DNA of 60,959 nucleotides, filler included, from Nitrospinae bacterium RIFCSPLOWO2_12_FULL_45_22 (GCA_001803565.1; 4 parts of 4 records of this genome joined end to end with filler, not necessarily neighbours in it), one strand, 5' to 3'; counted from the whole stretch's first letter, positions 10,018 to 30,000 are shown. Notes: generated from the letters alone by a model not told the origin. Made by a program: numbers and translations.

Positions 10018-10041
10018 GCAGTGAACAGTACACCGTAGAGC

Positions 10042-12835: not shown

Positions 12836-12935
12836 NNNNNNNNNNNNNNNNNNNNNNNNNNNNNNNNNNNNNNNNNNNNTTAATTAATTAANNNNNNNNN
12901 NNNNNNNNNNNNNNNNNNNNNNNNNNNNNNNNNNN
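12836..12935. other. Artificial contig linker
   Basis: N run - TTAATTAATTAA (stops in all frames) - N run, 100 nt. Confidence 0.98.
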
Positions 12936-13197
12936 TATACCCTTGTGGGGTGATAATCCCCCCCCTACCTTGCCTTTTAGCGTTTTCAAGTTCTTTAATC
13001 TCTCTTTGAGAAAGATCTATCCCCATACTCCTTAGATTCCAGGGGGTAAAGATAGGGGTTTTTATTATTACCTTGCAATCAATCTTCCCTGTATTCCCCT
13101 GACCAAGACCATGTCCAATGACAGGCACTTCTCGCTGTCGTCGGGTCATATCAGGATCGAATCTTACAAAGTTATAGGGATTAATGAAAAAAGGCAT
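12936..13197 (-). CDS. Type III-D Cas7-with-insertion RAMP (TIGR03986-like), 5' fragment
   Basis: FINPYNFV start and GKIDCKVIIKTPIF RAMP strand; follows csx19; cut by contig end. Confidence 0.8.
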
Positions 13198-13784
13198 TAC
13201 CTTACCTCTCCTTCGTAAAGTTTCACGGGCCTATAGAACTTATGCTCGATTAACCTACCTTCCTGGTCTAAATCCCTCATAACATAACTGTATATAATAA
13301 GTCGGCATCTATAGATCTTTTTAGGGTCGCTTACCTTCAAAGGATAGGAGAGAAACCTTGGTATTTGTCCTTCATACCATTCATCGGGTTTATCGTTGGT
13401 GCTTTCCCCCCAGAGATAGATATCAATGGGGTCGTTTTTAGATATTTCTTTGGTATTTTCGTTGGGGAAGAAATCTTTTAAGGCTCCTAAAATGGTATCT
13501 TTATCGGTTAAGAGAAAGATGTGATAACTCTTGTCATGATGGCTTTCGGCTTTATGCCATCTGCATTCGGCCTCTGCTCCAAAAATCCTCACCTTATCCC
13601 ACACTTCTGGGGTAGTCTCTCCTCCATTGAGAACAATCCTTTTCTTGGTTTTATCATAATTAAAGAATTCGAAGAGAATGCGTGCAGCACTTTCCAGGAT
13701 AATGTATTGGAAAGAGGTTATGTCTGCCACTCGCTCAATAATATCATTGAGGCTATCTACATAATTAAAGGTCACCTTACTCAA
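13197..13784 (-). CDS. csx19: Type III-D Csx19-like protein
   Basis: Lies between Cas7 genes; VRIFGAEAECRW and YLWGE...WYEGQIP patterns. Confidence 0.7.
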   Translation of the reverse strand: MSKVTFNYVDSLNDIIERVADITSFQYIILESAARILFEFFNYDKTKKRIVLNGGETTPEVWDKVRIFGAEAECRWHKAESHHDKSYHIFLLTDKDTILGALKDFFPNENTKEISKNDPIDIYLWGESTNDKPDEWYEGQIPRFLSYPLKVSDPKKIYRCRLIIYSYVMRDLDQEGRLIEHKFYRPVKLYEGEVR

Positions 13785-14911
13785 ACTAGCTTATCCTCCG
13801 GTATGTTTTCCAAAAAATAGTCCTTACTCATTTCATGTGGTAAAGTGTAGACAGAGTTAATGAAGCCGGTATCATCTTCAGCACTCCAGAGCTTCTTTAG
13901 TTCACCGAAAAGGGCCTCCTTCTGCTCCGAAGTTACAAACTTATAGGTATGCCTGAAGCCATTGGATATAATGGGTGGACAATGGGAAAGGTTTATCTCC
14001 TCCGTGCCCATAAAATCCTTATGCCAATACCTATTATCATTTATCAGCTTGCCAACACCCATCAACTTCCCATCAGGTGGTTTGTATCGCCCAAAGTAGG
14101 TGATAGAGATTGATTCTATCTCACCTGATACCTTACCCAGGCCCCTTGATTTTCCAAAGCCTAACTTCACTATTTGATCCTTAAAGTCATCAAAGATGTA
14201 TCCCAGTAAGCCTAGTTGCCATAGTTCAAAGGTGGTAAGGAATATGTCGTTAAAACTGAAAACTTTATTCTCTTCTTCCACTTCATAGTTAAAGAGGACA
14301 CCTGACTTTGCACTACTGGTAAACCTATCTATCCCTACCCCGTGCCTCCTGGGAAGCCTTACAAACTGGTTGCTATAGGTAGGGGCACTGGTATAGTCAC
14401 TATAACCATCTGGAATCTCTATCCTACTTTTCAGAAAATTGCATCCGAAGAGTTTGCAGATCGGACAAGCATCCCTGTAAACTTTATAAGAATCCAGATC
14501 TTCCTTTATGTATTCCTTTCTCAGGATAAACTTATCAGAACAGGAAAGGTCGTCCCCAATGCTTGATCTTTTTGCTCTTCCCTGTTTATCTTTCTCTATC
14601 TTAGAAAAGGGATTGCAGGTACCATCAGTAGTGCCTTTAAGGGTTCTGGCAATCCTTTCTGCATAGCTCCTTATAACTCCTTTCAATGACGAGCCTGGAA
14701 TATAGGGTACAACCCTATCATTTCGCATGGTCCTTACAAATCCTATGGAAGGAAGGTCCTTTTTGTCTCTGACATTGTAAAATCGCATATAATCATTCAG
14801 GATATTTCTCTTTTCTAAGCTTTCAGAATCGAGATCTTGTTTTATTAATAATGGGCCTTCAGTCTTTATCTTAAAAACTATCCTACATTCATTGAGAGCA
14901 ATTTTAAGCAT
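13781..14911 (-). CDS. cas7: Cas7-group RAMP (Csm3/Csx7-like)
   Basis: PYIPGSSLKGVIRS, CPICKLFG, GVGIDRFT, G-loop LGFGKSRGLG. Confidence 0.9.
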   Translation of the reverse strand: MLKIALNECRIVFKIKTEGPLLIKQDLDSESLEKRNILNDYMRFYNVRDKKDLPSIGFVRTMRNDRVVPYIPGSSLKGVIRSYAERIARTLKGTTDGTCNPFSKIEKDKQGRAKRSSIGDDLSCSDKFILRKEYIKEDLDSYKVYRDACPICKLFGCNFLKSRIEIPDGYSDYTSAPTYSNQFVRLPRRHGVGIDRFTSSAKSGVLFNYEVEEENKVFSFNDIFLTTFELWQLGLLGYIFDDFKDQIVKLGFGKSRGLGKVSGEIESISITYFGRYKPPDGKLMGVGKLINDNRYWHKDFMGTEEINLSHCPPIISNGFRHTYKFVTSEQKEALFGELKKLWSAEDDTGFINSVYTLPHEMSKDYFLENIPEDKLV

Positions 14912-14923
14912 CTGACCCTCCTC

Positions 14924-15766
14924 TCACTTTATGTCCGGGAAAAAGGGCTTTAGGGAATTCTTGATAAAATCCTTTATGCCGATTTTATCTTCATCGGCTA
15001 TTTTCCCCTCCAGGAGATAACCTGCCACCTTTCTTTTGTCTCCTTTAAAGTCTATCATCGAGACCTTTGCACTATCTTCCGACTTATCTTCCAACTTGCA
15101 CCTACCTGTACCCCTGGAGGTAAGCCCCCCTATCCTTGTCCCGTCAAGGAGCTCCCTGAGACCAATAGCTGCAAGAGCCAAGTCTTTATCATTGGGGTTT
15201 TCAATGGCTATTCTGAGATTGAATGTATGGTTAACGGGTAAGACCTCATAGTCGTACTTCACCCCTTCTACTGCCGTTCCGGTATCCCTATCTATTCCTA
15301 CCCCATCTCTGATTTCCCTATCTTCTGTATATCCACTATCAGGGGTAAGGTCATCTACAAAGAATCTTGAACCGAGATAAGGAAAGCCAAAGAGGTGGCA
15401 GGTATCACAGAGGGGTCCTCCTACTCCTAAGTCGTTTCCATCCTTGGTCTTTCCAGTTGTTATAATACTCAAAATCTCATCTTCTTTATCCTTTTCTCTA
15501 AGGGCATTTTTAAATCTTTCGCTGCATTCATCCTGGCTAAAAAGCGTACAGGTCCTAAAAGGGCTGCCTAGGGCTTTTGCTATCCTTTCTACCGTGCTTC
15601 TGAAGACCCCTTTGAAGGAAGAACCAGGGATATAAGGTCTACCATCATTGTATCTCACAATGGTTGAGTCGGTTTCGGGTGAACTCTCCCCACTACCTAT
15701 ATGTAAGGGGGTAAGGAGTACTATTCCCCCTTCAATAATATATCTCTTCTCTAATTCCCGAAACAT
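14924..15766 (-). CDS. cas7: Cas7-group RAMP (Csm3/Csx7-like)
   Basis: TPLHIGSG, PYIPGSSFKGVFRS, CDTCHLFG, RDGVGIDRDTG, IGGLTSRGTG. Confidence 0.93.
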   Translation of the reverse strand: MFRELEKRYIIEGGIVLLTPLHIGSGESSPETDSTIVRYNDGRPYIPGSSFKGVFRSTVERIAKALGSPFRTCTLFSQDECSERFKNALREKDKEDEILSIITTGKTKDGNDLGVGGPLCDTCHLFGFPYLGSRFFVDDLTPDSGYTEDREIRDGVGIDRDTGTAVEGVKYDYEVLPVNHTFNLRIAIENPNDKDLALAAIGLRELLDGTRIGGLTSRGTGRCKLEDKSEDSAKVSMIDFKGDKRKVAGYLLEGKIADEDKIGIKDFIKNSLKPFFPDIK

Positions 15767-15787
15767 ATTATCTCTCCTTTTCTTCGT

Positions 15788-16174
15788 TTATTTTTTGTTT
15801 ATCTGGTACCATCCTGACAAATAACCCATAAATTCCCTAGTAAGGCTAAGCCAGACGATCTCTCTGTTTAGTTTAGGAAAGGAGTTCATTATCTCATTAC
15901 ACCAATTATCTATATTGTTCTCCAAAATTTCCTTTATCTGCTCTCCAAAATCTGTTGTTTTTTCTTTCCACTTTTTAATCTTGTCATCGAGGAACTCTAG
16001 GATAAAGGTCTTATCTCTTTTCAAGATAACTCGCTCTAGGCCTTTTATTTGGCTATCTTCTAATTTTTGATAAGCCTTTGTTTGTTCTATAATTCTTTTT
16101 GCTTCTTCTAAGAGGGTACCTGAAAGATCCGCCCTTTTCACCTTTATATTTATTATTAGCTTAGTATCTACCAT
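15788..16174 (-). CDS. Probable small subunit (Cas11/Csm2-like)
   Basis: 128-aa helical protein in the usual III-D slot between csx10 and cas7; the call rests on position. Confidence 0.65.
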   Translation of the reverse strand: MVDTKLIINIKVKRADLSGTLLEEAKRIIEQTKAYQKLEDSQIKGLERVILKRDKTFILEFLDDKIKKWKEKTTDFGEQIKEILENNIDNWCNEIMNSFPKLNREIVWLSLTREFMGYLSGWYQINKK

Positions 16175-17349
16175 AATTGAGTTCCTATATAATGGAAGGG
16201 ATGGCAGGAAATTATCTCTCCAAAACCTTCATTTTTTTTGAAGCCTATGCCTTCTTTTTCAATTTTTTCCAAAACTCCTGTGAGTTCATCTATCTCATTA
16301 TCTGTCAGTGTATTATTTGACTCGAATAGGAATACAGAGCCCTTTGGGATCACTATCTCGTTATCCTTAGGTAACCTCCAGGCAGCATTCCATCCTGAAA
16401 GGACTCGACTACCTGTATAAAAAAGCTTTAGGCTGAACCTTTTTAATATATTGTGCTTAAATCGTTTATACAGTTCATCATGGTCTATATAAGAAAGGTA
16501 TTGAAAATAGTCATTCATAATGATCACATCTGATTGAAGGTTAAGAGTGAAGTAGAATCTTTTTTCTATTCCAGCATTTCGTATGGCACGGTTTAATTTT
16601 TTAAGCCTATCACTTACACTATCTTCAGGGGGGAATGAATCTTCCTCTGAAATTTCTTCCAGCTCTACCAATCCCATCCCTCGAGTTCTTCCGGTACCGA
16701 GATAGAACTTCTCTCCTCTTTTGAGGTAGCTATCCAATTGAGTATCAGGCATGATTACAGGACCAATAAAATATTGGCCCTTTTCTATAGCCTCCTTACT
16801 ATAGAGGATCCCTGGTTTACTTGTTTGTAAAAGATCAGAAATCTCATTATGGGCTATCTCTCTCTTTTTCGCAGTAATAGTTTCGAAATGGTCTCCAACT
16901 TGACAATAAAATCCCCCTATTGCCTCCATAGGGGCACCACATTCCGGGCACTCATCCTCCATCTCACCGGTATATTCATACCTGAGGAACTCGATCAGAA
17001 AATCTTTTATGCCATGGTTTCGCCTGATGCCTTGTCTTTGTTTTTCAAAGCCTTTACTTGCCTTACATGTCCTTGAAGTGGCAGGAAGTATTTTAATCAT
17101 TATCCCCATTGGAGAATCACCCTCCGGGTAAAGGTTTCCGAACCTTACAGAATTGCCATTAAATAATGACATGAAGTCTATATCCACTTCGGGATTTGAA
17201 AGCTTCTTATCCCTTATGTATCTATTAGCTAGATAACCCCTCAAAACCGTCCCAGGAATATAATCTAGGGTTCGGTTTATATTGCCTTCATCCCTCATGC
17301 TTGAAATAGAGAGGGGAGATAGGGTCTTAACCCGTATGTATCTCTTCAT
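16168..17349 (-). CDS. csx10: Csx10 (Cas5-group RAMP), type III-D signature
   Basis: TLDYIPGTVLRG, Cys cluster (CKASKG...CPEC), two G-loops (LGTGRTRGMG, GIGFKKNEGFG), SGWNAAWRLPK. Confidence 0.88.
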   Translation of the reverse strand: MKRYIRVKTLSPLSISSMRDEGNINRTLDYIPGTVLRGYLANRYIRDKKLSNPEVDIDFMSLFNGNSVRFGNLYPEGDSPMGIMIKILPATSRTCKASKGFEKQRQGIRRNHGIKDFLIEFLRYEYTGEMEDECPECGAPMEAIGGFYCQVGDHFETITAKKREIAHNEISDLLQTSKPGILYSKEAIEKGQYFIGPVIMPDTQLDSYLKRGEKFYLGTGRTRGMGLVELEEISEEDSFPPEDSVSDRLKKLNRAIRNAGIEKRFYFTLNLQSDVIIMNDYFQYLSYIDHDELYKRFKHNILKRFSLKLFYTGSRVLSGWNAAWRLPKDNEIVIPKGSVFLFESNNTLTDNEIDELTGVLEKIEKEGIGFKKNEGFGEIISCHPFHYIGTQLW

Positions 17350-17359
17350 TTCTCTCTCA

Positions 17360-18064
17360 TTACTGGAGATTCCTTATAGATTCGGAAATCTCCTTTTCTT
17401 GAATCAGACTTCCATTTATTTTAGCCTCTTCTATTCGAGTCTCTATTACTCCAATACCTCTACTTTTTGCTCCTCCAAGCCTATCCATAAACTTTATGCT
17501 AGCCATTAGGAGAGCAAATTCGGCAGGAATAACCCCTTTAGGATTTTGAAGGGTTATTGTCCCATTTATTTTGCCCTTAAATACTAGCCAAGGGGAGCAG
17601 ACTTCGGTAGTAAAGAACCTCTTAGGTCTTGTGATCCTTAAAGACCGGCTAATCATATTGGCATTTCTCTTGTCTACCTGGAACATCTTTATATCATCTT
17701 CTGACAGGGGGATTAGAGAATCTTTATCTATTTCGGCATCATAAAAGTTGAATCTTCCTTCATGGAAAGGGGAACCAAAGATTTGGCATATGGCGCAGCA
17801 GTCTTCAATTCTTGCCTTCCTACAAGGGTTGTTCTGCCCGTAACAGGAAGAAGTTATTGAATACGTAAATATCATGGAAAGCTTCTCATAGTGATCCCTT
17901 AATCTGCCTTTGATAGAAGACCCAGGAATGTATACCAATCCATCCCTTTCCCTCTTATCCCGTATAGTAGTCTTATCAAGGATGCCAGTAAGCCCTACTC
18001 CTGTCCCGATATGGAGAGGGCTTTTAAGATGAATTAAAAACTCAATTTCTACTCTATAATCCAT
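17360..18064 (-). CDS. cas7: Cas7-group RAMP (Csm3-like)
   Basis: SPLHIGTG, YIPGSSIKGRLR, CAICQIFGS, LGGAKSRGIG. Confidence 0.92.
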   Translation of the reverse strand: MDYRVEIEFLIHLKSPLHIGTGVGLTGILDKTTIRDKRERDGLVYIPGSSIKGRLRDHYEKLSMIFTYSITSSCYGQNNPCRKARIEDCCAICQIFGSPFHEGRFNFYDAEIDKDSLIPLSEDDIKMFQVDKRNANMISRSLRITRPKRFFTTEVCSPWLVFKGKINGTITLQNPKGVIPAEFALLMASIKFMDRLGGAKSRGIGVIETRIEEAKINGSLIQEKEISESIRNLQ

Positions 18065-18069
18065 AGCTA

Positions 18070-19572
18070 TTACTCAATAAAGTCGTATATTTCAATTAGA
18101 TCGAGTATAGGAGTGGAATATTCTCCATTTTCATCTTTCCATGGAAATTTATCCAAATTAAATTCTCTGGAAAAGTTATCTAACACTTCTCTTACTTTAG
18201 GTTTTAGCCTGGCCTTTAATAGGAGTAGTTCATACATTGCTTGTCCTTTGCCTTTGAATAAGGAATTATACATCTGTGCCAGTTTATTTTTTGGAAAGGG
18301 TATCTGTTTGAACCTCTCCACTTCCAGAAGAAGTTTAGTTAAATCGTCAGAATCTGGGAAACTGCTAAGCACTCTGTATGGTCTTTGGTAAAGTTTTACA
18401 TATCCTTCCTCATAAGAAAGTTCTTTATCTCGTATGTAATCCAATTCATTCGTGGAAGATGTTGTAATAAGGGCAAAATCCAGAACACTGGCATTCTCTT
18501 TTGGGGTGTTAGAATATAATCTGTTACTCAATTTTTTAGCTGATTTTAGCAGATCATCAGAAAAGGTAAACAACCTGAATAGGGGGAACTTCGAGTGAGC
18601 AATAACCACCCCCGCAGATATAGAGACTTCCATATTCTTCTGAATAGTACTCAAATGAAAATTCTTACAAAACTGGTGGGCTACCTTAATCGCCCTATTA
18701 CCAGGAACTAATACGATAACATCGTCACCCCCGATTAAGACAAACTCAAAGGGATAATAGTTCTTTCCACTCTTAGGTATAGGTTTCATATTTTCAGCTA
18801 CGGCTCTGAATATCTCTTCTTTGGTAATCCTTGAAATTTCCAAACTGAATGTTGAAAATTCTTTCTCATTGTTAATTCCTTGTATCTTCTGGCCCATTCT
18901 GTTGCCATCGCAATATATTAATCCGATGTAATTATCAGATTCTTCACCTATATCACCAATATCCTCAGGATTATCATATGCTATATTAACTGGCCAATAA
19001 GAAACAGGATTATTCCCCAACCATTGAGTAAAAGCATTGTAAAGAATGTTTCTGCCTGAGATATTCCTTTTATACTCACAAGATTTGCATAAAAAGTCAT
19101 CGCCTATTCTCTTGGATACAGGGTAAAGGCCACAAGATTTACATATTTTCGAATACGGGAGTTGATATAACTGAGAATTAATGCACTTTGACTCCTTGTT
19201 TTTTCTAAGCTTCTTCTCTCCACGCTCATTAACCTTGCCAAAACTTTGTATAAGCTCATCCTCAGCGGTCTCTTCTATGCTCCCGGTAATAGTGGCTGAG
19301 ATAGACTCGTTTTCATATAGGGCTCTCTCCTCAAGAATAAATTTTTTGGCCTTGTCTTTATCCCCAAAGATGGCCTTTGCCGCTCCCCCAGCAGCATAAA
19401 TACACCTTAAACCACCTGCACCTTCCACCCTCTGTTTAACCTCCTGGCTATTATTCAAGTCATTCAATATTGCACTTGCACCCCTTATCTCTTTCAGCTT
19501 ATCAGTAGCGAAAATATAAGAGTGTATCTTATCAGTATCTAAGGAAACGAGATAAAGCTTTTCTTCCTCCAT
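18070..19572 (-). CDS. cas10: Cas10 without HD domain, Palm2 intact
   Basis: Starts at Palm1 (IHSYIFATDKLKEIRGAS); CKSC...CKSC; YCDGNRMG; LIGGDDV; SAGVVIAH; LLKSAK. Confidence 0.95.
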   Translation of the reverse strand: MEEEKLYLVSLDTDKIHSYIFATDKLKEIRGASAILNDLNNSQEVKQRVEGAGGLRCIYAAGGAAKAIFGDKDKAKKFILEERALYENESISATITGSIEETAEDELIQSFGKVNERGEKKLRKNKESKCINSQLYQLPYSKICKSCGLYPVSKRIGDDFLCKSCEYKRNISGRNILYNAFTQWLGNNPVSYWPVNIAYDNPEDIGDIGEESDNYIGLIYCDGNRMGQKIQGINNEKEFSTFSLEISRITKEEIFRAVAENMKPIPKSGKNYYPFEFVLIGGDDVIVLVPGNRAIKVAHQFCKNFHLSTIQKNMEVSISAGVVIAHSKFPLFRLFTFSDDLLKSAKKLSNRLYSNTPKENASVLDFALITTSSTNELDYIRDKELSYEEGYVKLYQRPYRVLSSFPDSDDLTKLLLEVERFKQIPFPKNKLAQMYNSLFKGKGQAMYELLLLKARLKPKVREVLDNFSREFNLDKFPWKDENGEYSTPILDLIEIYDFIE

Positions 19573-19644
19573 TCCTTTTAACTCCTTATTAAGAGTGATA
19601 TTTTTGATCCTAGGGCTCCTATGTCAGATTAGCAATTAGTGGTT

Positions 19645-20067
19645 TCATGAATATTCCTCTCCTTGTGCCTTTATTAGATTTTCTAACAGGTCTTCAGCCT
19701 CTTTGACGAATTCCTTTGCCTTTGCCAGTTGATTCATCGCCTCATCTTCTGTTACCACTTTATAGTCTCCATAGTCAGCTTCTTCCCTCTCCCCTTTTGC
19801 ATCCTGAATGATGCGGCTGGCGGTTCTATCCATAAGGCCCTCCTTTACAAAATGCCGGTTGAAGAGGGAGATGACTCCTGAGTGTTTTCTGCTATCCAAC
19901 CCTTTTAGGGCAAGGAGGGCCCGCGCTGCCATAAGGATGGCATAATAGGAACGGCTGACAGAATCTTCAAATGCGCTAGATTCGAGAAGGATCTCGGCTG
20001 CCCGTATCTTCTCTTTAGCCTTACTCATGCGATAACGGGCAAGACCGATCTGATGTTGTTCGATCAT
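19645..20067 (-). CDS. HEPN domain protein of an MNT-HEPN pair
   Basis: SRSYYA, SRKHSGVISLF, REEADY; start overlaps MNT stop. Confidence 0.9.
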   Translation of the reverse strand: MIEQHQIGLARYRMSKAKEKIRAAEILLESSAFEDSVSRSYYAILMAARALLALKGLDSRKHSGVISLFNRHFVKEGLMDRTASRIIQDAKGEREEADYGDYKVVTEDEAMNQLAKAKEFVKEAEDLLENLIKAQGEEYS

Positions 20068-20411
20068 AGCGGGATACCTTCTCGTTCAATGTATTGGATA
20101 AATAGGGTTCTGAAATATCGATTTTTTCCATACTCCTCCTGGCTGTAAATCACAGGCGAGATATTACAATCATAGTCCAGATTAATATCAGCAGCCAAAC
20201 CACAGATCTCTTCATGTATCCTCCAATCTTTCGATTTTACTATTATCAATATGTCTATATCAGATTCCTGGTCAGAGTCTCCTCTCACTTTAGAGCCAAA
20301 TAGCTCTATTTCCTGTAATTCATCGCCTAGAAGCTGTCTGAGCTGGTGGCTAAATAATTGAAGCCCCTTTCGTTCTTTATCGGTTAAAAATCTATCGTAT
20401 CGATTCTTCAT
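20064..20411 (-). CDS. Minimal nucleotidyltransferase (MNT)
   Basis: LFGSKVRGDSDQESDIDILI (GS-x10-DxD); ends IEREGIPL. Confidence 0.92.
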   Translation of the reverse strand: MKNRYDRFLTDKERKGLQLFSHQLRQLLGDELQEIELFGSKVRGDSDQESDIDILIIVKSKDWRIHEEICGLAADINLDYDCNISPVIYSQEEYGKNRYFRTLFIQYIEREGIPL

Positions 20412-20559
20412 AATCTCCGTTCCTCATAACTATTTCCGCCCGATATTCAGGATGTATCTGCAACAGATGAGGGATGCCATTCTAAATTACTTCTTCCTCC
20501 ATTTTAAAATACCTGATTCTACAAATTCTCTAGACTCAAGGATATGACCTCCCTTGGCT

Positions 20560-20568
20560 ATTATAACA
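20560..20568 (-). promoter_or_regulatory. Candidate extended -10 promoter for the MNT-HEPN-cas10 operon
   Basis: TGTTATAAT (TGnTATAAT) on the minus strand. Confidence 0.5.
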
Positions 20569-20592
20569 CTAATCTAAATAAAGGGAGTCAAA

Positions 20593-20730
20593 TTAAAGAC
20601 ATGGCTAAACCCACCCCACCGAGTAGAGCCTTTATAGGCAGGCAGAAAAGAGGGACACAATGGCTTGGCAATAAAACCAAAAGATTGCAAAAGTGAGATT
20701 TATCTGCTGGACCATTGCTGGATAACCCCT
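20593..20730 (-). pseudogene. cas6: Decayed, frameshifted copy of the cas6 5' end and its RBS region
   Basis: Hand alignment to 28778-28914: ~25 mismatches and 1 indel in 138 nt; reads MVQQINLTFAIFWFYCQA.../LPAYKGSTRWGGFSHVF versus MEPEINLTFAIFRFYCQALEPLSLPAYKGSALRGGFGNVF. Confidence 0.9.
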
Positions 20731-21638: not shown

Positions 21639-21732
21639 TTTCTTTTTCTTTAAAGTTGATTTATCCTCGCTTCCTGGCCTTCCAGTCTCAATAGAGGGTG
21701 GGAGCTGCTAAAATAAGGGAAAATAAGATTTT

Positions 21733-21947
21733 AACCACAGATGAACACGGATAGATATAGATTGGGCCACGAAGGCACTAAGACACTAAAAAGCTCAAAG
21801 CTTAAAATGCAAAGTGTAAAATTAAGGTAATTATTCCTCAGCTTTGCACTTTTAGCTTTGCGTTTTACGTTTCCCTGGTGTCTTAGTGTCTTTGTGGCAG
21901 GGGAAGGGTAGCTGATTGATCCGTGTCCATCTGTATCTATCCGTGGC
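21733..21947. repeat. Triple-nested palindromic repeat element
   Basis: Outer CCACAGATGAACACGGAT/ATCCGTGTCCATCTGT...CCGTGG; middle GCCACGAAGGCACTAAGACAC/GTGTCTTAGTGTCTTTGTGGC (related at 41763-41930); inner GCAAAG/CTTTGC periodic hairpin. Confidence 0.8.
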
Positions 21948-22052
21948 AAATATTCATAAAGCTTTGTTTGGCTAAACTTTTACAAAAAAACTTTCTCTTT
22001 TTGTTACTGCTCACTCCTCACTGCTTTCTGCTCCCTCGGCCCTCAGGCCGCC

Positions 22053-23289
22053 GTTTCAATCCCGTATAAATCCGGTCTAGTCTTCCTACAAGTGGATAGA
22101 AGCTCTATAGGGGAGCTTATCGAAAAAGTTTCAATCCCGTATAAATCCGGTCTAGTCTTCCTACGAAAGGAAGTTTATGGTAGATCCACTGATCTACCTA
22201 AGTTTCAATCCCGTATAAATCCGGTCTAGTCTTCCTACAAATGCACGCCAAGGGAGGAACAAAATATGTTTTACGAGTTTCAATCCCGTATAAATCCGGT
22301 CTAGTCTTCCTACTTAAAAAAAGCAGCGCTAGGCCAGATGAAAAAAATTGAGTTTCAATCCCGTATAAATCCGGTCTAGTCTTCCTACACTATTAGAATT
22401 AATTGAAAAGATATTCACTGAAAGTTTCAATCCCGTATAAATCCGGTCTAGTCTTCCTACATTCAATCCGCTCTAAGATGCTTATCCGTTTTTAAAGTTT
22501 CAATCCCGTATAAATCCGGTCTAGTCTTCCTACATTTTTGACGTGGCGACAAACAAAATATCGGATTTTCTGTTTCAATCCCGTATAAATCCGGTCTAGT
22601 CTTCCTACTTAGGAAAAGCAGTAGGACAACATCTCATCATTGAAAGTTTCAATCCCGTATAAATCCGGTCTAGTCTTCCTACCCCTTCAACTGATAAATA
22701 AAAATTTTTATCATCTTGAGTTTCAATCCCGTATAAATCCGGTCTAGTCTTCCTACTTTAGAAAGAAAGCAGAAGAGGCGGCTTTTTCTGATTTAGTTTC
22801 AATCCCGTATAAATCCGGTCTAGTCTTCCTACCATAGACATTCCCACTTGGGTCACTTGTTATTTGTATTCTGGGTTTCAATCCCGTATAAATCCGGTCT
22901 AGTCTTCCTACAAAATCATATCATGTTCAGAATAAAAATACTGTCTTTTAAGTTTCAATCCCGTATAAATCCGGTCTAGTCTTCCTACGTGAGATAAATG
23001 AAACGGATAATTGTATATTTAGTTATAGTTTCAATCCCGTATAAATCCGGTCTAGTCTTCCTACATAAATATAGCCGTCTTCAATGAGGCATTTCGGATG
23101 AGGTTTCAATCCCGTATAAATCCGGTCTAGTCTTCCTACGCATCTTTAACAACACTGTTGGAAGCAACAAAATAAAAGTTTCAATCCCGTATAAATCCGG
23201 TCTAGTCTTCCTACGTAAACCCCATGGGCAAACCAATGCCTTATACTTGTGTGTTTCAATCCCGTATAAATCCGGTCTAGTCTTCCTAC
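22053..23289 (-). CRISPR. CRISPR array: 17 identical 37-nt repeats, 16 unique spacers (35-42 nt)
   Basis: Repeat on + is GTTTCAATCCCGTATAAATCCGGTCTAGTCTTCCTAC; the minus form ends ATTGAAAC; leader lies toward cas2. Confidence 0.99.
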
Positions 23290-23519
23290 TGCACCCTCTT
23301 TTGAAGCTGATGGGATAAGGGTTTGAGATGCCCATTCCGCTAACCTCCTTAGAAGAGAAAAAATTTATCCCTTTTATATCACTTTTTTTGTTATTTTTCA
23401 ATAGCAAAAATACCATCCAAATACAGATCAGTTGCCGGTCTCCCATTTTTCCCGCTAACCTACCCCCCAAAAGGCGTATTTTTACTCCGCCCTTCCGAAT
23501 TATGTAAACTTTGACGGTA
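23290..23519 (-). promoter_or_regulatory. CRISPR leader with sigma-70-like promoter
   Basis: Minus strand TTGAAA (23401-23396), 17 nt, TATAAA (23378-23373); CCGCTAACCT repeated at 23337 and 23452. Confidence 0.75.
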
Positions 23520-23795
23520 TTAAATCACCACCAGTTCATCGGGAGGCTCTGACCCTTTCTGTCCATAAGACTCCCGGTTCCCTGCACACCTATGGCATAG
23601 GTAATAGATCTTGAGGCTGTCTCCTTCAGGATCAATAATGGCCCGGACCTCCTGGATCATCTGCTGCAGATACTTTTCGTCCAGACTGCATTCAAAGACA
23701 CTATATTGTACCCTGGTGCCATAGTCCTTTAAGAGGTCAGCCAGTTTATTTCTCCGCTTATCATCTATGATATCGTATGAGACCACCACAAACAT
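23520..23795 (-). CDS. cas2: Cas2
   Basis: VVSYDIIDDKRR, YGTRVQYSVFEC, DSLKIYYLC. Confidence 0.98.
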   Translation of the reverse strand: MFVVVSYDIIDDKRRNKLADLLKDYGTRVQYSVFECSLDEKYLQQMIQEVRAIIDPEGDSLKIYYLCHRCAGNRESYGQKGSEPPDELVVI

Positions 23796-23811
23796 AATAT
23801 CACAGTTGGGG

Positions 23812-24807
23812 CTATTCCAACAAAAAGGGAGTATACAGTTCCCGGGAGCGAATAGTACGGGCTAGTCTATGGGCCTGACGCTGAAAAAGGGTACGAAAAG
23901 ATATCTTCTCGCCCGTGAATGAGTCCTGAAAAAGCTCATTCATTCGTTTCTCGTATTGGGTAAAGTATTGCTTTAAGGATTCAGGTTTAAGGAGGAAACC
24001 ACCATCGTCTGCTTCTTTAAAATCCTCAGGGGAGAGGACCCGGTTATTGAGCAAGAAAAGGGTGAATCTATCAACTATGGGGTGACGGAATTCCTCTACC
24101 ATATCCAGGGCCAGGGAGGGCCTGCCATAATCTATGCCATGCAGATAGCCGATATAGGGATCAAACCCGATGGCAAAGAGCAGGGATAGGATTTCACTGG
24201 TTATCAAGGTATAGCCGAAGCTCAATAAGGCATTAACCGGGTCTCTGGGTGGCCTTCGGCTCCGGGTAGAAAAGGCCAACTCTCCCCGAAACATCCGGCC
24301 AAAGGCCCGAAAGTAAGTGGCAGTAGCCTGACCTTCAATACCTAAGAGGCTCGAAACCGGTAAATTATCCTTCAATCTCATGAGGCTCTGCTCCAACCCT
24401 TCGAGCTGGGCCGAGAAGTCTGACTCAGGATAATTTCTGGCATATCTCTTTATCAGGGCCCGGGCATTCTTTATCTTGGCCTCTACCAGGAGCCGGGCAT
24501 GCCCTCTCTGAAATTCATCATCCAGGTATCTTTCGTATTGGGCTATGCGTAGTAAGATATTCTTAGACTCCGCCGGTGCCAGCCTCCCCCGGAACTTCCC
24601 TCTATGGGAAAGATAACATAGATCAATGCCCGAGTCCAAGAGAAAGGCCACGGCCTGCGAGGTTACTTGAACGTTCCCAAAGATAAGGAGCCGATCCAGG
24701 TTAATAGCTGGTATCTCGGCTATGGTCTCTTTCCCTTTGGTAATAATCAATCTCCGTGAGGTCTTCTTTACTACACTTCCCTGTTCAGTGATATAGATGG
24801 TTCTCAC
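23812..24807 (-). CDS. cas1: Cas1
   Basis: IYITEQGS, LLGIEGQATATYF, RRPPRDPVNALLSFGY, GYLH, LALDMVEEFR. Confidence 0.98.
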   Translation of the reverse strand: MRTIYITEQGSVVKKTSRRLIITKGKETIAEIPAINLDRLLIFGNVQVTSQAVAFLLDSGIDLCYLSHRGKFRGRLAPAESKNILLRIAQYERYLDDEFQRGHARLLVEAKIKNARALIKRYARNYPESDFSAQLEGLEQSLMRLKDNLPVSSLLGIEGQATATYFRAFGRMFRGELAFSTRSRRPPRDPVNALLSFGYTLITSEILSLLFAIGFDPYIGYLHGIDYGRPSLALDMVEEFRHPIVDRFTLFLLNNRVLSPEDFKEADDGGFLLKPESLKQYFTQYEKRMNELFQDSFTGEKISFRTLFQRQAHRLARTIRSRELYTPFLLE

Positions 24808-24816
24808 AGGCTCCCC

Positions 24817-27810
24817 CTACAGCTCTATTACCCAGATCATTTTATCGCCTTTTTTCACCCGGGTTAAATTACCCAGGCTGGTAGGAAGAGAATCTATCTC
24901 TTTTGCTTGAAAGAGGCGAGTCAACTCTTCTTCAGTATCTCGAATCTTGAGTTCTATATCATTCCGGCTTTTCTTCATTGCTATATAGCTCTCCAGCAAC
25001 TGCTCTACCAAAGGTTCTGGAGGCCTTTCAATAGCTGTTTCCAGGCCGGCCGCAGGGGCCGTAGTTTCTTGGTCGGGAGCAGGTACTTGCGGCTCTTGTG
25101 TAATTGCCGCATCAAGCTCCTTATCTTCAGGAGGTTCCAGAGCGGTATCCGGGCAGGAAATTCCGGTAGGCTCTTCCTGCTCTTGTGCCTTTATCTTAAT
25201 AATGGTATCTGGATCGGCATAGAGAACCGGGGAGGGATAACCTTTTTCCGGTACCGGAAACTCGCAATAACAGCCGATACTGGGGGTAAGATCACTGAGC
25301 CATTCTCTGATCCGGGGGCAGCTAACTGGATAGGGCTTCAGGCGCTTTATCCAGCGCCCGGTCCTATTAGGATCATAATTAAGACAATGGCCAATAATTT
25401 GGTGGAGAGCTTGTTTGCCTGCCTTTCCCAGAAGGCCCAGGGTATGGAGCAGGGTTAAACGCTCATAATGGCCAAGTTCTTGCTCAGATTCGGCCTTCCG
25501 GGCCAGGAAGCGGATCACATTACATCGCTCTAATACCCTCTTCACCCCCTCATTATCTTCTGAATCTTCTGGCATCTTGGGTGAGGGTAGCTTTTGGGCA
25601 CGCAGAATCATACTGGCCTGCCGCAATTTTTCTGGGGAGATGAGTTCTAGCTGGGTCAATATTTCCAGTTGATTGTCATAGGGTTTACCGGCTGTATCAA
25701 GGAAAAGGGCACGTCTTTGATTTATCTGATGAATGCCTAAAGGTAGTTTTATCAAAGAGCCCAGGGCATCTTTGCTCACATAATCCTGTTTAGGAAAGAT
25801 CTCCCAATGGATACCAGCCGGTGNNNNNNNNNNNNNNNNNNNNNNNNNNNNNNNNNNNNNNNNNNNNNNNAATATATCCTTAAGAAATTCGCGTACTTCG
25901 GCGGCCCTTATAGGCTGAGAGAAAAAGAACCATAAATGCCTGCCTTTCCAGCCACTATCTTCGACATAAACCGGGATGCCCAAGCCCTTCGAGATATCTC
26001 GGAGTTTATGGGCTTCCTTCTGCACCAGCGCCTCCCATTCCGACCAGGTATCAAAGGGCTGGCATTGTTCGTTTATGGTCTGTTTGGTGAGATCAATATC
26101 AATAACCCCTACTTTAACGGTATTATCACTCCTCATCAGATATAGTCCCAGGGTAGTTTTACCTTGCAGATGACTTTGGACATCATCTGGGCTCAAGGGT
26201 TTATGCACTGGCATATAGCCGCTACGGCCAGTGTTATCTACCCATTGCTGGGCAAATACCCCTTCCCGGCCAGAGAAGAGGCGCAAGAACTGTTGGATCT
26301 GCTCAGTGGTATAAGCTACAACCGGGTCTGGTTTTTCTTCTTTTGCAACGGCATGCGCCGGTGGCGGCTCAGGTGGCTTTATATCGGGGTCTAATTCTCT
26401 GGCTCGAGCAAGGGCCTTCCGGGCAGCACCATACAAGCCCCATCTCCCCAGGGCAATCCCTAAGGCAAGATGGGCCTCTGCTGATTCTGGGGCCAGTTGC
26501 ACTGCCCGTTGCAAGTAGCGGATGGCCTTATCCATCTTCCCTTGCCTGAGCAGGGCAACTCCGAGATGATATATTGCCTCTTTATGATCGGGCTTTATCT
26601 TTAATGCCTGGTAAAAATTCTCTCGGGCTTCCTCTTCCATTTGTAGGGCCTGACAAAGGATACCCCATTGGTAGTAGAGCTCGGCCTCGGTTGAAGGCAA
26701 TTCCATCCCTTCCAGGACTATCTCTTTTGCCTTCTCTTCTTCGTTAGACTGGAGTAATAAGGCAGCCTTAAGGATCTGGGCTGGGATAGTGTCTTTGTGA
26801 GCATCCAGGATAGCATCTAGCTCCCTCTGCAGGTTCGCCTGGTCAGCAGCACTCATCTGGAAATAATTCAGCCACCCCCGCATAATACTTTTCAGCTTTG
26901 CCGCCAAATCTACAGGCGGTATCTCTTGGGCAGCCGATAATTGTTGTTCAATCTTTGCCTTCAGACGATCAAGAGCCCTGGATGTAGGCCTCTTACCCTC
27001 CGGAGTAAAATGGTATCCCAGGAAGACAAATCCCTGCTCCAGGGAGCAGATACGGGTCTTATCTTCATTGAACCGGAGGTAGAGCTTCTTTTCAAGGATT
27101 TCTCGGGCAATATCCAGGGCAGTTCGGGCCTCTTCTTCTGTGAGGCATAGGACTAAGATATCATCTGCATATCTAATATAGTGTCCTGGAGACCTGACCA
27201 TCACCTCATCTAAGGGATGAAGATAGATATTAGCCAGCAAAGGAGAAAGGACCATACCCTGGGGTATGCCAATTGGGGCTCCACCCGGGGGCTTGATGCT
27301 GTCCTGTATCAGCCTCAGGACTTTGGCATCGGTTATCTTCAAAGAGATAAGCTCCACAAGGAGGGTCTGGTCTATGCTATCAAAGAAATTATCAATATCG
27401 GCATCTACGATCCAATGCCTACCTTTTTTGATATTTCGCTCGATTCGTGCTATGGCTTTATGGGCGGAGCGGCCGGGCCGGTATCCATAAGAGCAATCAA
27501 GAAACTGGACATCAAATATAGGTTGCAGGACCAGCAAGAGGGCTTCCTGTACAATCCTATCCCTTATAGCCGGGATTTTGAGCTCTCTCTCATCTTTCCC
27601 TTTAAAGCTCAATAAGGGAAGGGGTTCATACAGGTCTTGCCGGACCAGGTTTAGTAGGAGAGAAAGATTATCAGTGAGGTTGGCCTCGAAGTCCCCCAGA
27701 GAAACCCGGTCTATGCCGGGCGAGCCCATATTGGCCTTGACCCTCTGCCAGGCCTGACGGAAGTTTTCTTCAGTAGATAACTTTTGCCAGAGGGCGATAT
27801 CCCCTTTCAA
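24817..27810 (-). CDS. CRISPR-associated reverse transcriptase-TPR-primase/polymerase fusion (CART-CAPP architecture)
   Basis: RT: IPAIRDRIVQ, DADIDNFFD, GIPQG, YIRYADD, FLGY, RGWLNYF; several TPRs; AEP: FSGREG, VIDID, SGWKGRH, EIFPKQD, LIKLPLG; Cys-rich C-terminal domain; TTG start with AAGGAGG RBS; N gap at 25824-25870. Confidence 0.93.
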   Translation of the reverse strand: MKGDIALWQKLSTEENFRQAWQRVKANMGSPGIDRVSLGDFEANLTDNLSLLLNLVRQDLYEPLPLLSFKGKDERELKIPAIRDRIVQEALLLVLQPIFDVQFLDCSYGYRPGRSAHKAIARIERNIKKGRHWIVDADIDNFFDSIDQTLLVELISLKITDAKVLRLIQDSIKPPGGAPIGIPQGMVLSPLLANIYLHPLDEVMVRSPGHYIRYADDILVLCLTEEEARTALDIAREILEKKLYLRFNEDKTRICSLEQGFVFLGYHFTPEGKRPTSRALDRLKAKIEQQLSAAQEIPPVDLAAKLKSIMRGWLNYFQMSAADQANLQRELDAILDAHKDTIPAQILKAALLLQSNEEEKAKEIVLEGMELPSTEAELYYQWGILCQALQMEEEARENFYQALKIKPDHKEAIYHLGVALLRQGKMDKAIRYLQRAVQLAPESAEAHLALGIALGRWGLYGAARKALARARELDPDIKPPEPPPAHAVAKEEKPDPVVAYTTEQIQQFLRLFSGREGVFAQQWVDNTGRSGYMPVHKPLSPDDVQSHLQGKTTLGLYLMRSDNTVKVGVIDIDLTKQTINEQCQPFDTWSEWEALVQKEAHKLRDISKGLGIPVYVEDSGWKGRHLWFFFSQPIRAAEVREFLKDIXXXXXXXXXXXXXXXXXPAGIHWEIFPKQDYVSKDALGSLIKLPLGIHQINQRRALFLDTAGKPYDNQLEILTQLELISPEKLRQASMILRAQKLPSPKMPEDSEDNEGVKRVLERCNVIRFLARKAESEQELGHYERLTLLHTLGLLGKAGKQALHQIIGHCLNYDPNRTGRWIKRLKPYPVSCPRIREWLSDLTPSIGCYCEFPVPEKGYPSPVLYADPDTIIKIKAQEQEEPTGISCPDTALEPPEDKELDAAITQEPQVPAPDQETTAPAAGLETAIERPPEPLVEQLLESYIAMKKSRNDIELKIRDTEEELTRLFQAKEIDSLPTSLGNLTRVKKGDKMIWVIEL

Positions 27811-27942
27811 TAAGAATCCTCCTTCACCTCAGAGCACGCAAAGAACGCTGAGAGGATAGTTACTCCGAGAGGGGTTGGGAGTAGTCAAAAGCCGAAGTAT
27901 GATAACTAACCGTTCACTACTGAATAACCTCCAATATCTCTC

Positions 27943-28899
27943 CTACTCGATACGATATTTTCCCAGGCCATAAACAGTACCTTTGCCTACATGGAGATAT
28001 TCACCAAGTTTTATAAACGGGAGGAACTCAGCCAGCTCACCCGCAAAGGTCATCTTATTTACAAAGCCACCCATCTTTATCCTGGTTTGCTGCCGCTGAG
28101 AATAGCGCTCCCAGTCCTGCCATTGCAACCCAGAATGTATGACCTTTACTTTCTCTCTTGCTTTCCCCAGGAGTGCTTTATAATCCAGCTCCCACTTATT
28201 ATCACAGTGTATTTCTGCTAGCCAGGATAGTCTCCGCAGGATATTCTTCAGCAATATCTCAAAATCTATCTCCTTGGTCAGCCTCCCCTGGTATTTGATC
28301 CGGGTAGGGGTGCAGAACCGGAGGCTTATCTGCGAAGGCTCATACCTCTTAGCCTCGTCCGATACCTCAGTGAAGGTCTTTACTTGATACCGGGTAGTGA
28401 AGCTCCTGGTCTTTCCATCAAAGATAGATAAACCAGAGTCCTCATTGACATGGCCCAGGTTTTCAACCTTCACGATATGGTATCTACCCCTTCCCCGGCC
28501 GAGGCCTTTCCGGCCCAGCTCATCAAAGGTATAGACAAAATAAGGTAAATACTCTATGGCGCGGCCTATCAGGAGCAGGTTAAAGGCAAACTCTTCGTCT
28601 GGCTGGTAGTTCTGCTGCGGGGTAAGGGGCGGCTCTATTATAAAAGGGTGGGGGAAATAATTGGTATTCTTTCCGGTTTCACCCAGGGGGGGTGTCTCGA
28701 AGATGAAGGAATAGGAGCATTTCGCTCGCAGCATACACCGCAGGCAGTCCTGATTTTTTTCTATACATACTACCTGCTTAAAGACATTGCCAAATCCACC
28801 CCGCAGGGCAGAGCCTTTATAGGCAGGCAGAGAGAGGGGCTCAAGGGCCTGGCAATAAAACCGGAAGATAGCAAAGGTAAGGTTTATCTCGGGTTCCAT
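27943..28899 (-). CDS. cas6: Cas6 endoribonuclease
   Basis: YKGSALRGGFG, PHPFIIEPP, FCTPTRIK, C-terminal G-loop HVGKGTVYGLGKY. Confidence 0.95.
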   Translation of the reverse strand: MEPEINLTFAIFRFYCQALEPLSLPAYKGSALRGGFGNVFKQVVCIEKNQDCLRCMLRAKCSYSFIFETPPLGETGKNTNYFPHPFIIEPPLTPQQNYQPDEEFAFNLLLIGRAIEYLPYFVYTFDELGRKGLGRGRGRYHIVKVENLGHVNEDSGLSIFDGKTRSFTTRYQVKTFTEVSDEAKRYEPSQISLRFCTPTRIKYQGRLTKEIDFEILLKNILRRLSWLAEIHCDNKWELDYKALLGKAREKVKVIHSGLQWQDWERYSQRQQTRIKMGGFVNKMTFAGELAEFLPFIKLGEYLHVGKGTVYGLGKYRIE

Positions 28900-28992
28900 T
28901 ATTGGATAACCCCTTCTTCAGGTTTTTTTCTTCTCCCACTAGGGCACAAAAACTCCAAAATCGCAAGACCATTTGCCTGATGCCTAGCCCTG

Positions 28993-29049
28993 TTACTTAA
29001 ATAGGTAACGGGCAGTAACCACTCGCTGTATCTGATTGGTCCCTTCAAA
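28993..29049 (-). CDS. 3' end of an acyl-CoA dehydrogenase (not in the ORF track)
   Basis: Minus strand reads FEGTNQIQRVVTARYLFK*, the EGTNQIQR C-terminal signature. Confidence 0.8.
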   Translation of the reverse strand, partial: FEGTNQIQRVVTARYLFK

Positions 29050-29050
29050 G

Positions 29051-29150
29051 NNNNNNNNNNNNNNNNNNNNNNNNNNNNNNNNNNNNNNNNNNNNTTAATT
29101 AATTAANNNNNNNNNNNNNNNNNNNNNNNNNNNNNNNNNNNNNNNNNNNN
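29051..29150. other. Artificial contig linker
   Basis: N run - TTAATTAATTAA - N run. Confidence 0.98.
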
Positions 29151-29625: not shown

Positions 29626-30000
29626 ATGGCCGAGGAAAAGATAGGGGAAGTAGTAAAATATTTCGCTAAGCCCGGGGTAGCTGCAATCCAGTTAAGCAAA
29701 GGCTCTCTGANNNNNNNNNNNNNNNNNNNNNNNNNNNNNNNNNNNNNNGAAAAGATAGGGGAAGTAGTAAAATATTTCGCTAAGCCCGGGGTAGCTGCAA
29801 TCCAGTTAAGCAAAGGCTCTCTGAATATTGGCGACACCATTCATATAAAAGGGCATACTACCGACTTTGAGCAGCAGATCCAATCTATGCAGATCGAACA
29901 CCAATATGTCCAGAGTGCTGGCCCGGGACAATCCATAGGTATTAAGGTAAGGGATAGGGTTCGGGAAGGAGATGCAGTTTATAAAGTTACTGCTGATTAG
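29626..30000 (+). CDS. Small translation-elongation-factor-like beta-barrel protein (~86 aa once the assembly duplication is removed)
   Basis: IGEVVKYFAKPGVAAI, GDTIHIKGHTTDFEQ, SMQIEH, RVREGD; 29635-29710 is duplicated at 29749-29824 across an N gap. Confidence 0.85.
   Translation: MAEEKIGEVVKYFAKPGVAAIQLSKGSLXXXXXXXXXXXXXEKIGEVVKYFAKPGVAAIQLSKGSLNIGDTIHIKGHTTDFEQQIQSMQIEHQYVQSAGPGQSIGIKVRDRVREGDAVYKVTAD

Follow-up and report, generated by a model that had tools for sequence, protein, structure and literature searches.

Reverse transcriptase (RT)-assisted adaptation lets type III and some type VI CRISPR systems record RNA, and it is the basis of transcript-recording tools. RT-dependent acquisition of spacers from RNA is established for RT-Cas1 systems, according to work by others cited in PMC10415136. 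A different class of polymerase, the CRISPR-associated primase-polymerases (CAPPs), was described by Zabrady 2021 (PMC8211822) as DNA-dependent primase-polymerases that carry out strand displacement on integration intermediates and prime poorly on RNA; the enzymes for which DNA-dependent priming and strand displacement are reported there include those of Marinitoga and Dysgonamonadaceae. The same paper reports that MpCAPP binds Cas1, the binding being mapped only to a fragment that comprises the tetratricopeptide repeats (TPRs) and the archaeo-eukaryotic primase (AEP) domain. The two kinds of polymerase are also known in combination. CRISPR RTs of 'clade 12', which are fused or adjacent to an AEP domain, are mentioned in a review (PMC8632793) with reference to Toro et al. 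2019, and Zabrady 2023 (PMC10415136) named the CART-CAPPs as a subclass, reporting in addition de novo priming by CRISPR-associated RTs, on RNA as well as on DNA, and integration of the primed cDNA. The biochemistry of RT-CAPP fusions has so far been that of two enzymes with a dead primase-polymerase (Prim-Pol), and this has suggested that the second polymerase is no more than a relic. Here we analyse an RT-CAPP fusion gene encoded in a 60,959-nucleotide stretch of DNA (filler included) of Nitrospinae bacterium RIFCSPLOWO2_12_FULL_45_22 (GCA_001803565.1), called the window below. Its product comes from a much larger clade of RT-TPR-CAPP proteins, present in bacteria and archaea, that is dominant and unstudied.

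The window consists of four contigs glued by N44-TTAATTAATTAA-N44 linkers at 12836-12935, 29051-29150 and 42975-43074. Since these linkers are artificial, genes past 29050, or past the other joints, are not physically linked to the CRISPR locus, and only the CRISPR contig (12936-29050) was counted as locus context. On this contig cas6, the fusion gene, cas1, cas2, a putative leader and a CRISPR array follow each other in this order (Table 1), forming a module of about 5.6 kb plus the array. The fusion open reading frame (ORF) has a TTG start at 27810 that is preceded by an AAGGAGG box, its stop codon is at 24817-24819, and cas1 starts 9 nt past that stop. In agreement with an earlier note made from this DNA sequence alone, Cas6 and Cas1 are separate proteins; cas6, cas1 and cas2 are genes of their own, all on the same strand as the fusion gene.

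It is near certain that the fusion is an adaptation polymerase of the CART-CAPP class. It is predicted to be a polypeptide of about 987 amino acids in which a domesticated group-II-intron-type RT is joined to a complete TPR-type CAPP, comprising the TPRs, the AEP domain, a PriL-CTD-like domain and a Gam-like tail. Taken alone this finding is the correct identification of a known kind, and no surprise. What goes beyond the literature available to us is that the clade joins an RT to a full TPR-type CAPP with near-invariant AEP catalytic residues, and that the RT of 24 of 118 relatives has a YxDN motif.

The domain assignments are based on several comparisons, for which residues are numbered as in the window ORF, including a run of X that stands for an assembly gap. 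Pfam assigned RVT_1 to residues 72-268 (95.4 bits) and GIIM to residues 281-322 (24.8 bits), and TIGR04416, the NCBIfam model of the group II intron RT/maturase, matched residues 15-325 with 289.7 bits, below its cut-off of 300. Profile comparison with PDB structures gave 166.4 bits for 6ar1, 103.8 bits for 7kft and 41.9 bits for 8bgj, the CaCART RT. The best Foldseek match of the N-terminal third was again 6ar1, the GsI-IIC group II intron RT (E 8.6e-20, TM score by target 0.70). YADD, D138, the QG of motif 4 and the thumb are all kept. PADLOC recognised the fusion protein with its PrimPol 'adaptation polymerase' profile (305.2 bits), with an RT profile (277 bits) and, over the RT part, with the RT-Cas1 profile 'Cas1_IIIb' (195 bits).

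Behind the RT, Pfam TPR families matched residues ~376-476. The AEP domain that follows displays DID at 571-573, SGWKGRH at 619-625 and, beyond the gap, WEIFP. It matched 7nqd with 124.5 bits, with the motifs aligned, and in a sequence alignment with the Marinitoga CAPP Prim-Pol the DxD, the motif II His, the Glu of EIFP and the KLPLGxH stretch coincide. Foldseek matched it to 7nqe, the CAPP Prim-Pol of Marinitoga sp. 1137, with a TM score by target of 0.93, a root-mean-square deviation of 1.5 Å and 33-34% identity. In addition, NF040561, 'CRISPR-associated primase-polymerase type A1', matched residues 353-876 with 409.9 bits (cut-off 200), covering profile positions 2-485 of 515.

The C-terminal domain (CTD) was less easily placed. 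A Foldseek search with the CTD plus tail returned nothing at E up to 0.001, the best match being human PriL-CTD 5f0q at E 0.25. When the CTD was modelled alone (pLDDT 82.2), VIA-align gave middling scores: Z 7.3-7.9 for the helical domain of photolyases/cryptochromes and Z 5.0 for PriL-CTD 6di2, the Fe-S domain of the eukaryotic primase large subunit. These scores agree with the PriL-CTD-like assignment that a preprint (10.1101/2025.09.07.674619) reports for MsCAPP and CaCART-CAPP from AlphaFold 3 models. The tail is recognised as Mu_Gam-Sipho_Gp157-TOTE at residues 936-997, and a fold search with it (model residues 188-260) yielded generic long helices only. Both PF22548, the AEP-TOTE family that matches the AEP domain, and PF22709, the family of the tail, score above the gathering score of 27. 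An AlphaFold model of the protein, built with 120 homologues, has a mean pLDDT of 88.3 and is disordered only in the linkers 486-492 and 871-922. Together the Pfam and NCBIfam matches and the motif positions bear out the earlier note, which had seen an RT with YADD, TPRs, an AEP domain with DID and SGWKGRH, and a Cys-rich C-terminal domain in one ORF.

Comparison with described systems supports that the protein belongs with the RT-CAPP fusions published in PMC8211822 and PMC10415136, as far as these are described there. Like the CART-CAPPs (CaCART-CAPP CCJ33120 and GlCART-CAPP; clade 12) it has an N-terminal RT, then a CAPP Prim-Pol, then a C-terminal domain, and like theirs its gene lies beside cas1-cas2 in a type III locus, with a role in spacer acquisition proposed. 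It differs from them by ~140 TPR residues between RT and AEP and by the Gam-like tail, and it is considerably longer than CaCART-CAPP (713 amino acids). Its RT is also nearer to the intron RT 6ar1 than to the CaCART RT 8bgj, as the scores given above show. The Prim-Pol of the Caloramator (Ca) and Geobacillus (Gl) fusions, compared here by published description only, is inactive in vitro, whereas the AEP motifs of the window protein are intact and vary hardly at all within its clade. The TPR-type CAPPs (CAPP_A, 'CAPP-TPR'; Marinitoga piezophila MpCAPP, Marinitoga sp. 1137 MsCAPP; NF040561) share the TPR-AEP-CTD architecture, the fold, the catalytic motifs and the position of cas1-cas2 directly downstream. 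The CAPP-TPR type is RT-less, however, while the window ORF has a 335-residue RT ahead of its TPRs; MpCAPP lacks an RT, and PMC8211822 describes its locus as type III-B with Argonaute. We found no explicit description of the RT-TPR-AEP form in the portions of the literature available to us; 'TPR' is absent from the main text of PMC10415136, the supplements of which may list such proteins.

Other systems resemble the window protein in parts. RT-Cas1 and Cas6-RT-Cas1 fusions (Marinomonas mediterranea; PDB 7kft; Vibrio vulnificus type III-D) also use a group-II-intron-derived RT for type III adaptation, and the gene order cas6, RT, cas1 of the window mirrors their domain order. Here, however, Cas6 and Cas1 are separate, and the fusion partner of the RT is a second polymerase. 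Mobile group II intron RT/maturases (GsI-IIC RT, 6ar1; TIGR04416) share fingers, palm and thumb and are the best match of the N-terminal 330 residues, but the window RT lacks a detectable intron RNA and a DNA-binding or endonuclease domain, stays below the family cut-off and forms a separate lineage. Finally, E. coli PPRT (10.1101/2025.09.07.674619) and DRT7 (10.64898/2026.04.18.719102), as presented in those sources, combine an AEP Prim-Pol, a PriL-CTD-like domain and a group-II-like RT in one polypeptide; in contrast to the window protein they are PrimPol-first, unlinked to cas1-cas2, and serve defence or repair rather than spacer acquisition.

A homologue search of a collection of 5.8 billion proteins returned 247 matches, and the architecture was scored for the best 120 of these. 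RVT_1, at least one TPR family and AEP-TOTE occur together in 105 of these best 120 homologue clusters; 13 have RT and AEP but no recognised TPR, and two are without an RT. Because 105 of the best 120 share RT, TPR and AEP, the architecture is not rare, contrary to what the earlier note had supposed; proteins of this kind are common in metagenomes, and NCBI already has a name, type A1, for such proteins. The source names of the relatives include Zhuqueibacterota, KSB1, Myxococcota, Pseudomonadota, Methanophagales, Syntropharchaeales and Methanosarcinales. When an RT-less relative was used as query, again mainly RT-fused forms were returned.

The state of the two active sites was studied in an alignment of the 120 homologues (A1), in which counts give the rows that keep a residue out of the rows that have a residue at that column. 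For the AEP domain, D571 and D573 are each kept in 118/119 rows and H625 in 117/118, and the position of E660 is occupied by Glu in 113 and by Asp in four of 117 rows. The CTD residues C753, C821, C837, C839 and H793 are kept in every row having a residue there. For the RT, D138 is kept in 114/115 and D216 in 117/118 rows; D217, by contrast with these, is Asp in 94 and Asn in 24 of 118. This Asn defines the YxDN relatives, in which the motif is mostly [YF]SDN (for instance P0014, P0024 and P0026). They keep the AEP motifs, with P0047, in which both RT and AEP are degenerate, as the sole exception, and 22 of the 24 fall within a 43-row RT clade that includes the window protein. A degenerate AEP combined with an intact RT was found in none of the 120 relatives. 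In the window protein itself both polymerase active sites look intact, and on the evidence of the alignment no feature of the clade is kept more strictly than the active site of the Prim-Pol.

The origin of the fusion was approached with two trees. For the first we used 80 metagenomic loci (36 RT-bearing and 44 RT-less), which were found in a scan with an RT-less CAPP alignment and mapped with the proteins of the window. The AEP-CTD tree has 75 rows, namely the 74 locus ORFs with AEP and CTD in one frame plus P0005, a close relative of the window protein from a different assembly; seven ORFs that are split or short were excluded. One 37-row set (SH-aLRT 94) takes in all 34 RT-bearing rows, and its other three rows are cut by a contig end. 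None of the 26 RT-less rows whose upstream sequence reaches 1 kb or more belongs to this set. The second tree, built with FastTree, contains 109 fused RTs, taken from those of the 120 A1 rows in which 250 RT residues or more are present, and 45 of 78 group-II-intron-like RTs. The 78 came from a scan of genome contigs with the full-length alignment, whose 80 loci match only to about residue 400, that is, over the RT part. A branch with support 100 separates the 45 intron-like RTs from the 109 fused RTs. In addition, no Rfam intron family was detected at E up to 0.1 on 12936-29050. Taken together, the AEP-CTD tree, the RT tree and the absence of a detectable intron RNA indicate that a domesticated intron RT was fused to a TPR-type CAPP once, long ago, and that vertical diversification followed.

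We propose the following working order for the module. In a first step the RT would copy foreign RNA into first-strand DNA, starting de novo. The AEP domain, aided by the CTD, would then prime and make the second strand, and possibly fill gaps after integration by Cas1-Cas2. Held via the TPR-AEP part, Cas1-Cas2 would insert the product at the leader-proximal repeat, and Cas6 would cut the array transcript into CRISPR RNAs (crRNAs) for RNA-guided interference by the type III-D effector. The fusion gene is predicted to be co-transcribed with cas6, cas1 and cas2, and the array would feed an effector that is HD-less and cyclase-competent. The present analysis establishes the integrity of the gene, the identity of its domains, the conservation of the gene order and, for both polymerases, catalytic motifs that are intact and conserved. 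The activities, namely priming by CRISPR RTs, priming and strand displacement by CAPPs and binding of Cas1 by a CAPP, are carried over by analogy from the papers on relatives. A structure prediction of Cas1 in complex with the TPR-AEP part (residues 338-735) scored 0.00 in both runs, which weighs neither way.

That the two polymerases of the window protein act in relay, and that the spacers stem from RNA, is what we infer. The self-priming machine converting RNA to double-stranded DNA that the earlier note had proposed fits the biochemistry of relatives and the intact, conserved active sites, and is opposed by the inactive Prim-Pol of the assayed fusions; it stands as an interpretation. We consider the identity as a CART-CAPP adaptation polymerase and an RT/AEP relay, taken jointly, to be moderately probable. 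A stronger version can be put forward only tentatively, and we doubt it somewhat more than we believe it: throughout the RT-TPR-CAPP clade the relay would be obligate, the RT providing cDNA and the AEP domain with its four-Cys CTD priming and completing the second strand and repairing integration gaps, so that the Prim-Pol would be indispensable and no relic; the YxDN sisters would have retired or re-purposed RT catalysis, and a conserved 312-residue protein encoded near the module may be a further part. An obligate relay, if true, would be the reverse of the 'inactive Prim-Pol' view derived from the two assayed fusions. The clean operon makes the question 'one polymerase or two', that is, of a one-protein relay from RNA to duplex DNA for prespacers, testable. 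In the portions of the literature available to us we found no in vivo acquisition experiment with an RT-CAPP fusion.

Several observations weigh against a relay fed by RNA. Conservation of motifs is no proof of catalysis, and RT catalysis may be dispensable in close relatives, since about half of the nearest RT clade (22/43) has YxDN. The spacers have a G+C content of 33%, compared with 43.5% for the contig, and in crRNA sense they contain 228 T versus 177 A (p 0.013), the T excess being present in 12/16 spacers; the same excess would equally be expected from selection for functional type III spacers. Open-frame counts were 23 versus 23 on the two strands and thus uninformative. None of the 16 spacers matched phage records, the best E of 0.4 being at chance level. 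Searches against the rest of the window gave no significant match (11-16 nt; best E 0.02), and searches against the fetched related loci gave only three matches of 16-20 nt, at E ~0.009, none of them significant. Without significant targets, an RNA origin and a strand bias are not demonstrable from the spacers. Finally, PMC10415136 reports that the Prim-Pol is inactive in both CART-CAPPs assayed (Caloramator australicus and Geobacillus lituanicus), and its authors propose an inactive Prim-Pol as a common trait of CART-CAPP fusions.

The main rival follows from this last point: the RT would do all the synthesis, and the AEP domain, without catalytic activity of its own, would be retained as a scaffold that binds Cas1-Cas2 or DNA. 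It draws on the same paper, in which the isolated CaCART-CAPP Prim-Pol is inactive, RT mutants lose activity and inactivity is proposed to be common. The conservation pattern in the aligned relatives speaks against a silent AEP. The metal-binding residues and those of motifs II and III are kept in 117-118 of 117-119 relatives and align with those of the Marinitoga CAPP, and the four-Cys CTD, which is of the priming type, is conserved as well. There is also no relative among the 120 in which the AEP has decayed beside an intact RT, the lone degenerate AEP being that of P0047, whose RT is degenerate too. Moreover, the RT of the window clade is distant from the Caloramator RT (8bgj, compared with 6ar1 above), which makes extrapolation from the Caloramator enzyme weak. 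We therefore regard a silent AEP as unlikely.

In the opposite arrangement the AEP domain would be the working polymerase, the RT mainly a module for binding RNA or template, and acquisition would be from DNA. The YxDN relatives are what favours it, given that they combine an altered RT motif with an intact AEP and concentrate in the clade of the window protein. The window protein, however, keeps YADD and the other RT features listed above, and catalysis may well survive an Asn at the second position. Some viral RNA polymerases function with GDN. RT-dependent acquisition from RNA is, moreover, established in RT-Cas1 systems (cited in PMC10415136). We consider this arrangement very improbable, and a relay of the two polymerases continues to be our preferred reading.

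The fusion could also have nothing to do with adaptation, being a separate conflict system or the remnant of a mobile group II intron that merely lies beside cas genes. The label 'TOTE conflict system' that Pfam attaches to PF22548 and PF22709 would fit the former, and the similarity of the RT to mobile group II intron RTs the latter. The position of cas1 in the neighbourhoods of the 80 metagenomic loci argues against both. Each of the following counts is restricted to loci with enough flanking sequence, and many of the loci are close kin, so that the counts are not independent. Among loci with at least 1.2 kb downstream, Cas1 is encoded directly downstream in 27/27 RT-bearing and 31/31 RT-less loci, 58/58 overall. 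Type III RAMP genes lie upstream in 11/15 RT-bearing and 13/15 RT-less loci (at least 5 kb upstream), and cas6 is present on the same strand at most 1.6 kb upstream in 11/26 RT-bearing versus 0/22 RT-less loci (at least 1.5 kb upstream). Iterated hidden Markov model searches of the 80 loci for Cas10, Csx19, the small subunit, MNT and HEPN gave nothing at E 1e-5, so that the share of type III-D could not be counted. Against an intron remnant, no intron RNA was found on the contig, TIGR04416 stays under its cut-off, and the RT has no DNA-binding or endonuclease tail and runs into the TPR-AEP part in one frame; NCBIfam and PADLOC, furthermore, both class the protein as CRISPR adaptation. A role outside adaptation is accordingly highly improbable. 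One locus, L088, contains two tandem RT-TPR-CAPP genes (8690-11806 and 12720-15986) behind type III genes, with no cas1 before the contig ends.

The fusion gene is whole, and the 47-N scaffold gap within it is harmless. The gap lies between AEP motifs II and III and was translated as a run of X, residues 647-663. As the earlier note had pointed out, the RT and AEP motifs I and II are all on one side of it. P0005 is identical to the window ORF at 978/997 aligned positions (98%), and reads continuously across the gap with seven residues in place of the 17 X of the window. In addition, Logan contigs of two sequencing runs, X1, possibly from the source sample, and X3, from a different sample and study, bridge the gap in frame, omitting 30 letters so that 17 real nucleotides remain. 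The contigs of X1 tile 24700-28000 completely, and no joints or loose ends were seen across the fusion gene in the bridging contigs. It is because P0005 reads through and the X1 and X3 contigs bridge in frame that we conclude that the gene is whole. The comparison was made at the level of contigs; at this level the frameshift or misjoin that the earlier note had named as the way in which the gene might fall did not appear, and its statement that the fusion is no scaffolding artefact holds. An assembly artefact joining two genes at the gap or elsewhere, which the gap itself and the concatenated nature of the window might suggest, can be dismissed, considering that RT, TPRs and AEP motifs I and II share one side of the gap, that an independent assembly yields the same protein without a gap, that contigs of two runs span it, and that the architecture is common to most of the best homologues.

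At position 25876, next to the gap, the contigs of runs X1, X2 and X3 have T instead of A on the plus strand, which changes Asp645 (GAT) to Glu (GAA), matching P0005. The window base at this position probably reflects either an error at the edge of an assembly or a minor variant. On the neighbouring contig there is another internal scaffold gap, of 38 N at 29711-29748.

Table 1. Position of the fusion gene, its domains and the surrounding features in the window.
Feature	Position	Strand	Basis or remark
Group-II-intron-like RT (fingers, palm, thumb/X), residues 1-335	26806..27810	-	YADD at 214-217
TPR region, residues ~340-476	26383..26793	-	TPR_1, TPR_19, TPR_8 and others; helical repeats in model
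AEP Prim-Pol domain, residues 503-731	25618..26304	-	PF22548 (AEP-TOTE) 157.6 bits
Putative helical C-terminal domain, four Cys and one His (PriCT / PriL-CTD-like)	25171..25563	-	conservation, VIA-align
C-terminal tail: long helix and beta-hairpins (Mu Gam / Gp157-like), behind disordered linker	24820..25005	-	Pfam PF22709, 63.9 bits
RT-TPR-AEP-CTD-tail fusion gene (CART-CAPP type)	24817..27810	-	997 codons as assembled, ~987 in reality
47-N scaffold gap within AEP domain	25824..25870	no strand	true content 17 nt, frame kept
cas6, 318 aa, first gene of adaptation/processing module	27943..28899	-	Pfam CRISPR_Cas6 69.8 bits; PADLOC Cas6 PDLC01477 361.5 bits
cas1, 331 aa	23812..24807	-	Pfam Cas_Cas1 315.1 bits; TIGR00287 293.4 bits
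cas2, 91 aa	23520..23795	-	Pfam CRISPR_Cas2 90.5 bits
Putative leader, 230 nt, between cas2 and first repeat	23290..23519	-	inferred from position only
CRISPR array: 17 identical 37-nt repeats, 16 spacers of 35-42 nt	22053..23289	-	minus-strand repeat ends ATTGAAAC
Conserved protein of unrecognised family, 312 aa	20700..21638	-	downstream of array in window
Nucleotidyltransferase (MNT-like) and HEPN gene pair, toxin-antitoxin-like	19645..20411	-	NTP_transf_2 32.1 bits, HEPN 75.3 bits
Type III-D effector genes: cas10d, csm3-like, csx10, small subunit, csx7, further RAMP, putative csx19	13197..19572	-	NCBIfam/PADLOC matches

The effector genes next to the module were identified as follows. Csx10, the Cas5 of type III-D, matched TIGR02674 with 177.5 bits (cut-off 177.3) and PADLOC Cas5_IIId with 186.3 bits. 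The 500-residue Cas10d matched its PADLOC profile with 210.8 bits over residues 6-499 and contains GGDD. It gave no match to an HD domain, and its palm region is at the very start of the protein, which leaves no room for one. Csx19 is weak, with 23.1 bits for TIGR03984, under the cut-off of 35, and 29.7 bits (E 1.2e-7) in PADLOC. Because Csx10 passes its cut-off, PADLOC recognises Cas10d and Cas5_IIId, and Cas10 is without HD, the effector is assigned, from these profile matches, to HD-less type III-D. The earlier note had likewise described a cas6-fusion-cas1-cas2-array module beside an HD-less III-D system, and the Csx10, Cas10d and Cas5_IIId scores support this description.

The pair of MNT-like nucleotidyltransferase and HEPN genes is located between the array and cas10. 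In 21 of the 80 related loci (L081-L160), RT-bearing and RT-less ones alike, the gene immediately upstream of the CAPP is a member of a single ORF cluster, and in four sampled members of this cluster Csm6 HEPN domains occur together with partial 6H or CARF domains. Csm6 is absent from the window, though its Cas10 keeps GGDD; in its place the window has the MNT-HEPN pair and the 312-residue protein.

The 312-residue protein matched no Pfam, NCBIfam or PADLOC family and had no PDB relative by profile, and an Atlas search gave no usable match, the Atlas model having a pLDDT of 0.35. The protein is nevertheless conserved: 34 homologue clusters were found at 44-59% identity, each named 'hypothetical', and 26 aligned rows of the family have 46 invariant columns. 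For three homologues the length of the longest contig is the same as for RT-CAPP matches. It may be an overlooked partner of the adaptation module or an ancillary effector. In the two nearest loci, L083 (7942-8829) and L085 (2338-3225), its homologues sit between cas6 and the RT-CAPP gene. The same two metagenomic loci also contain a 37-nt repeat identical to that of the window array.

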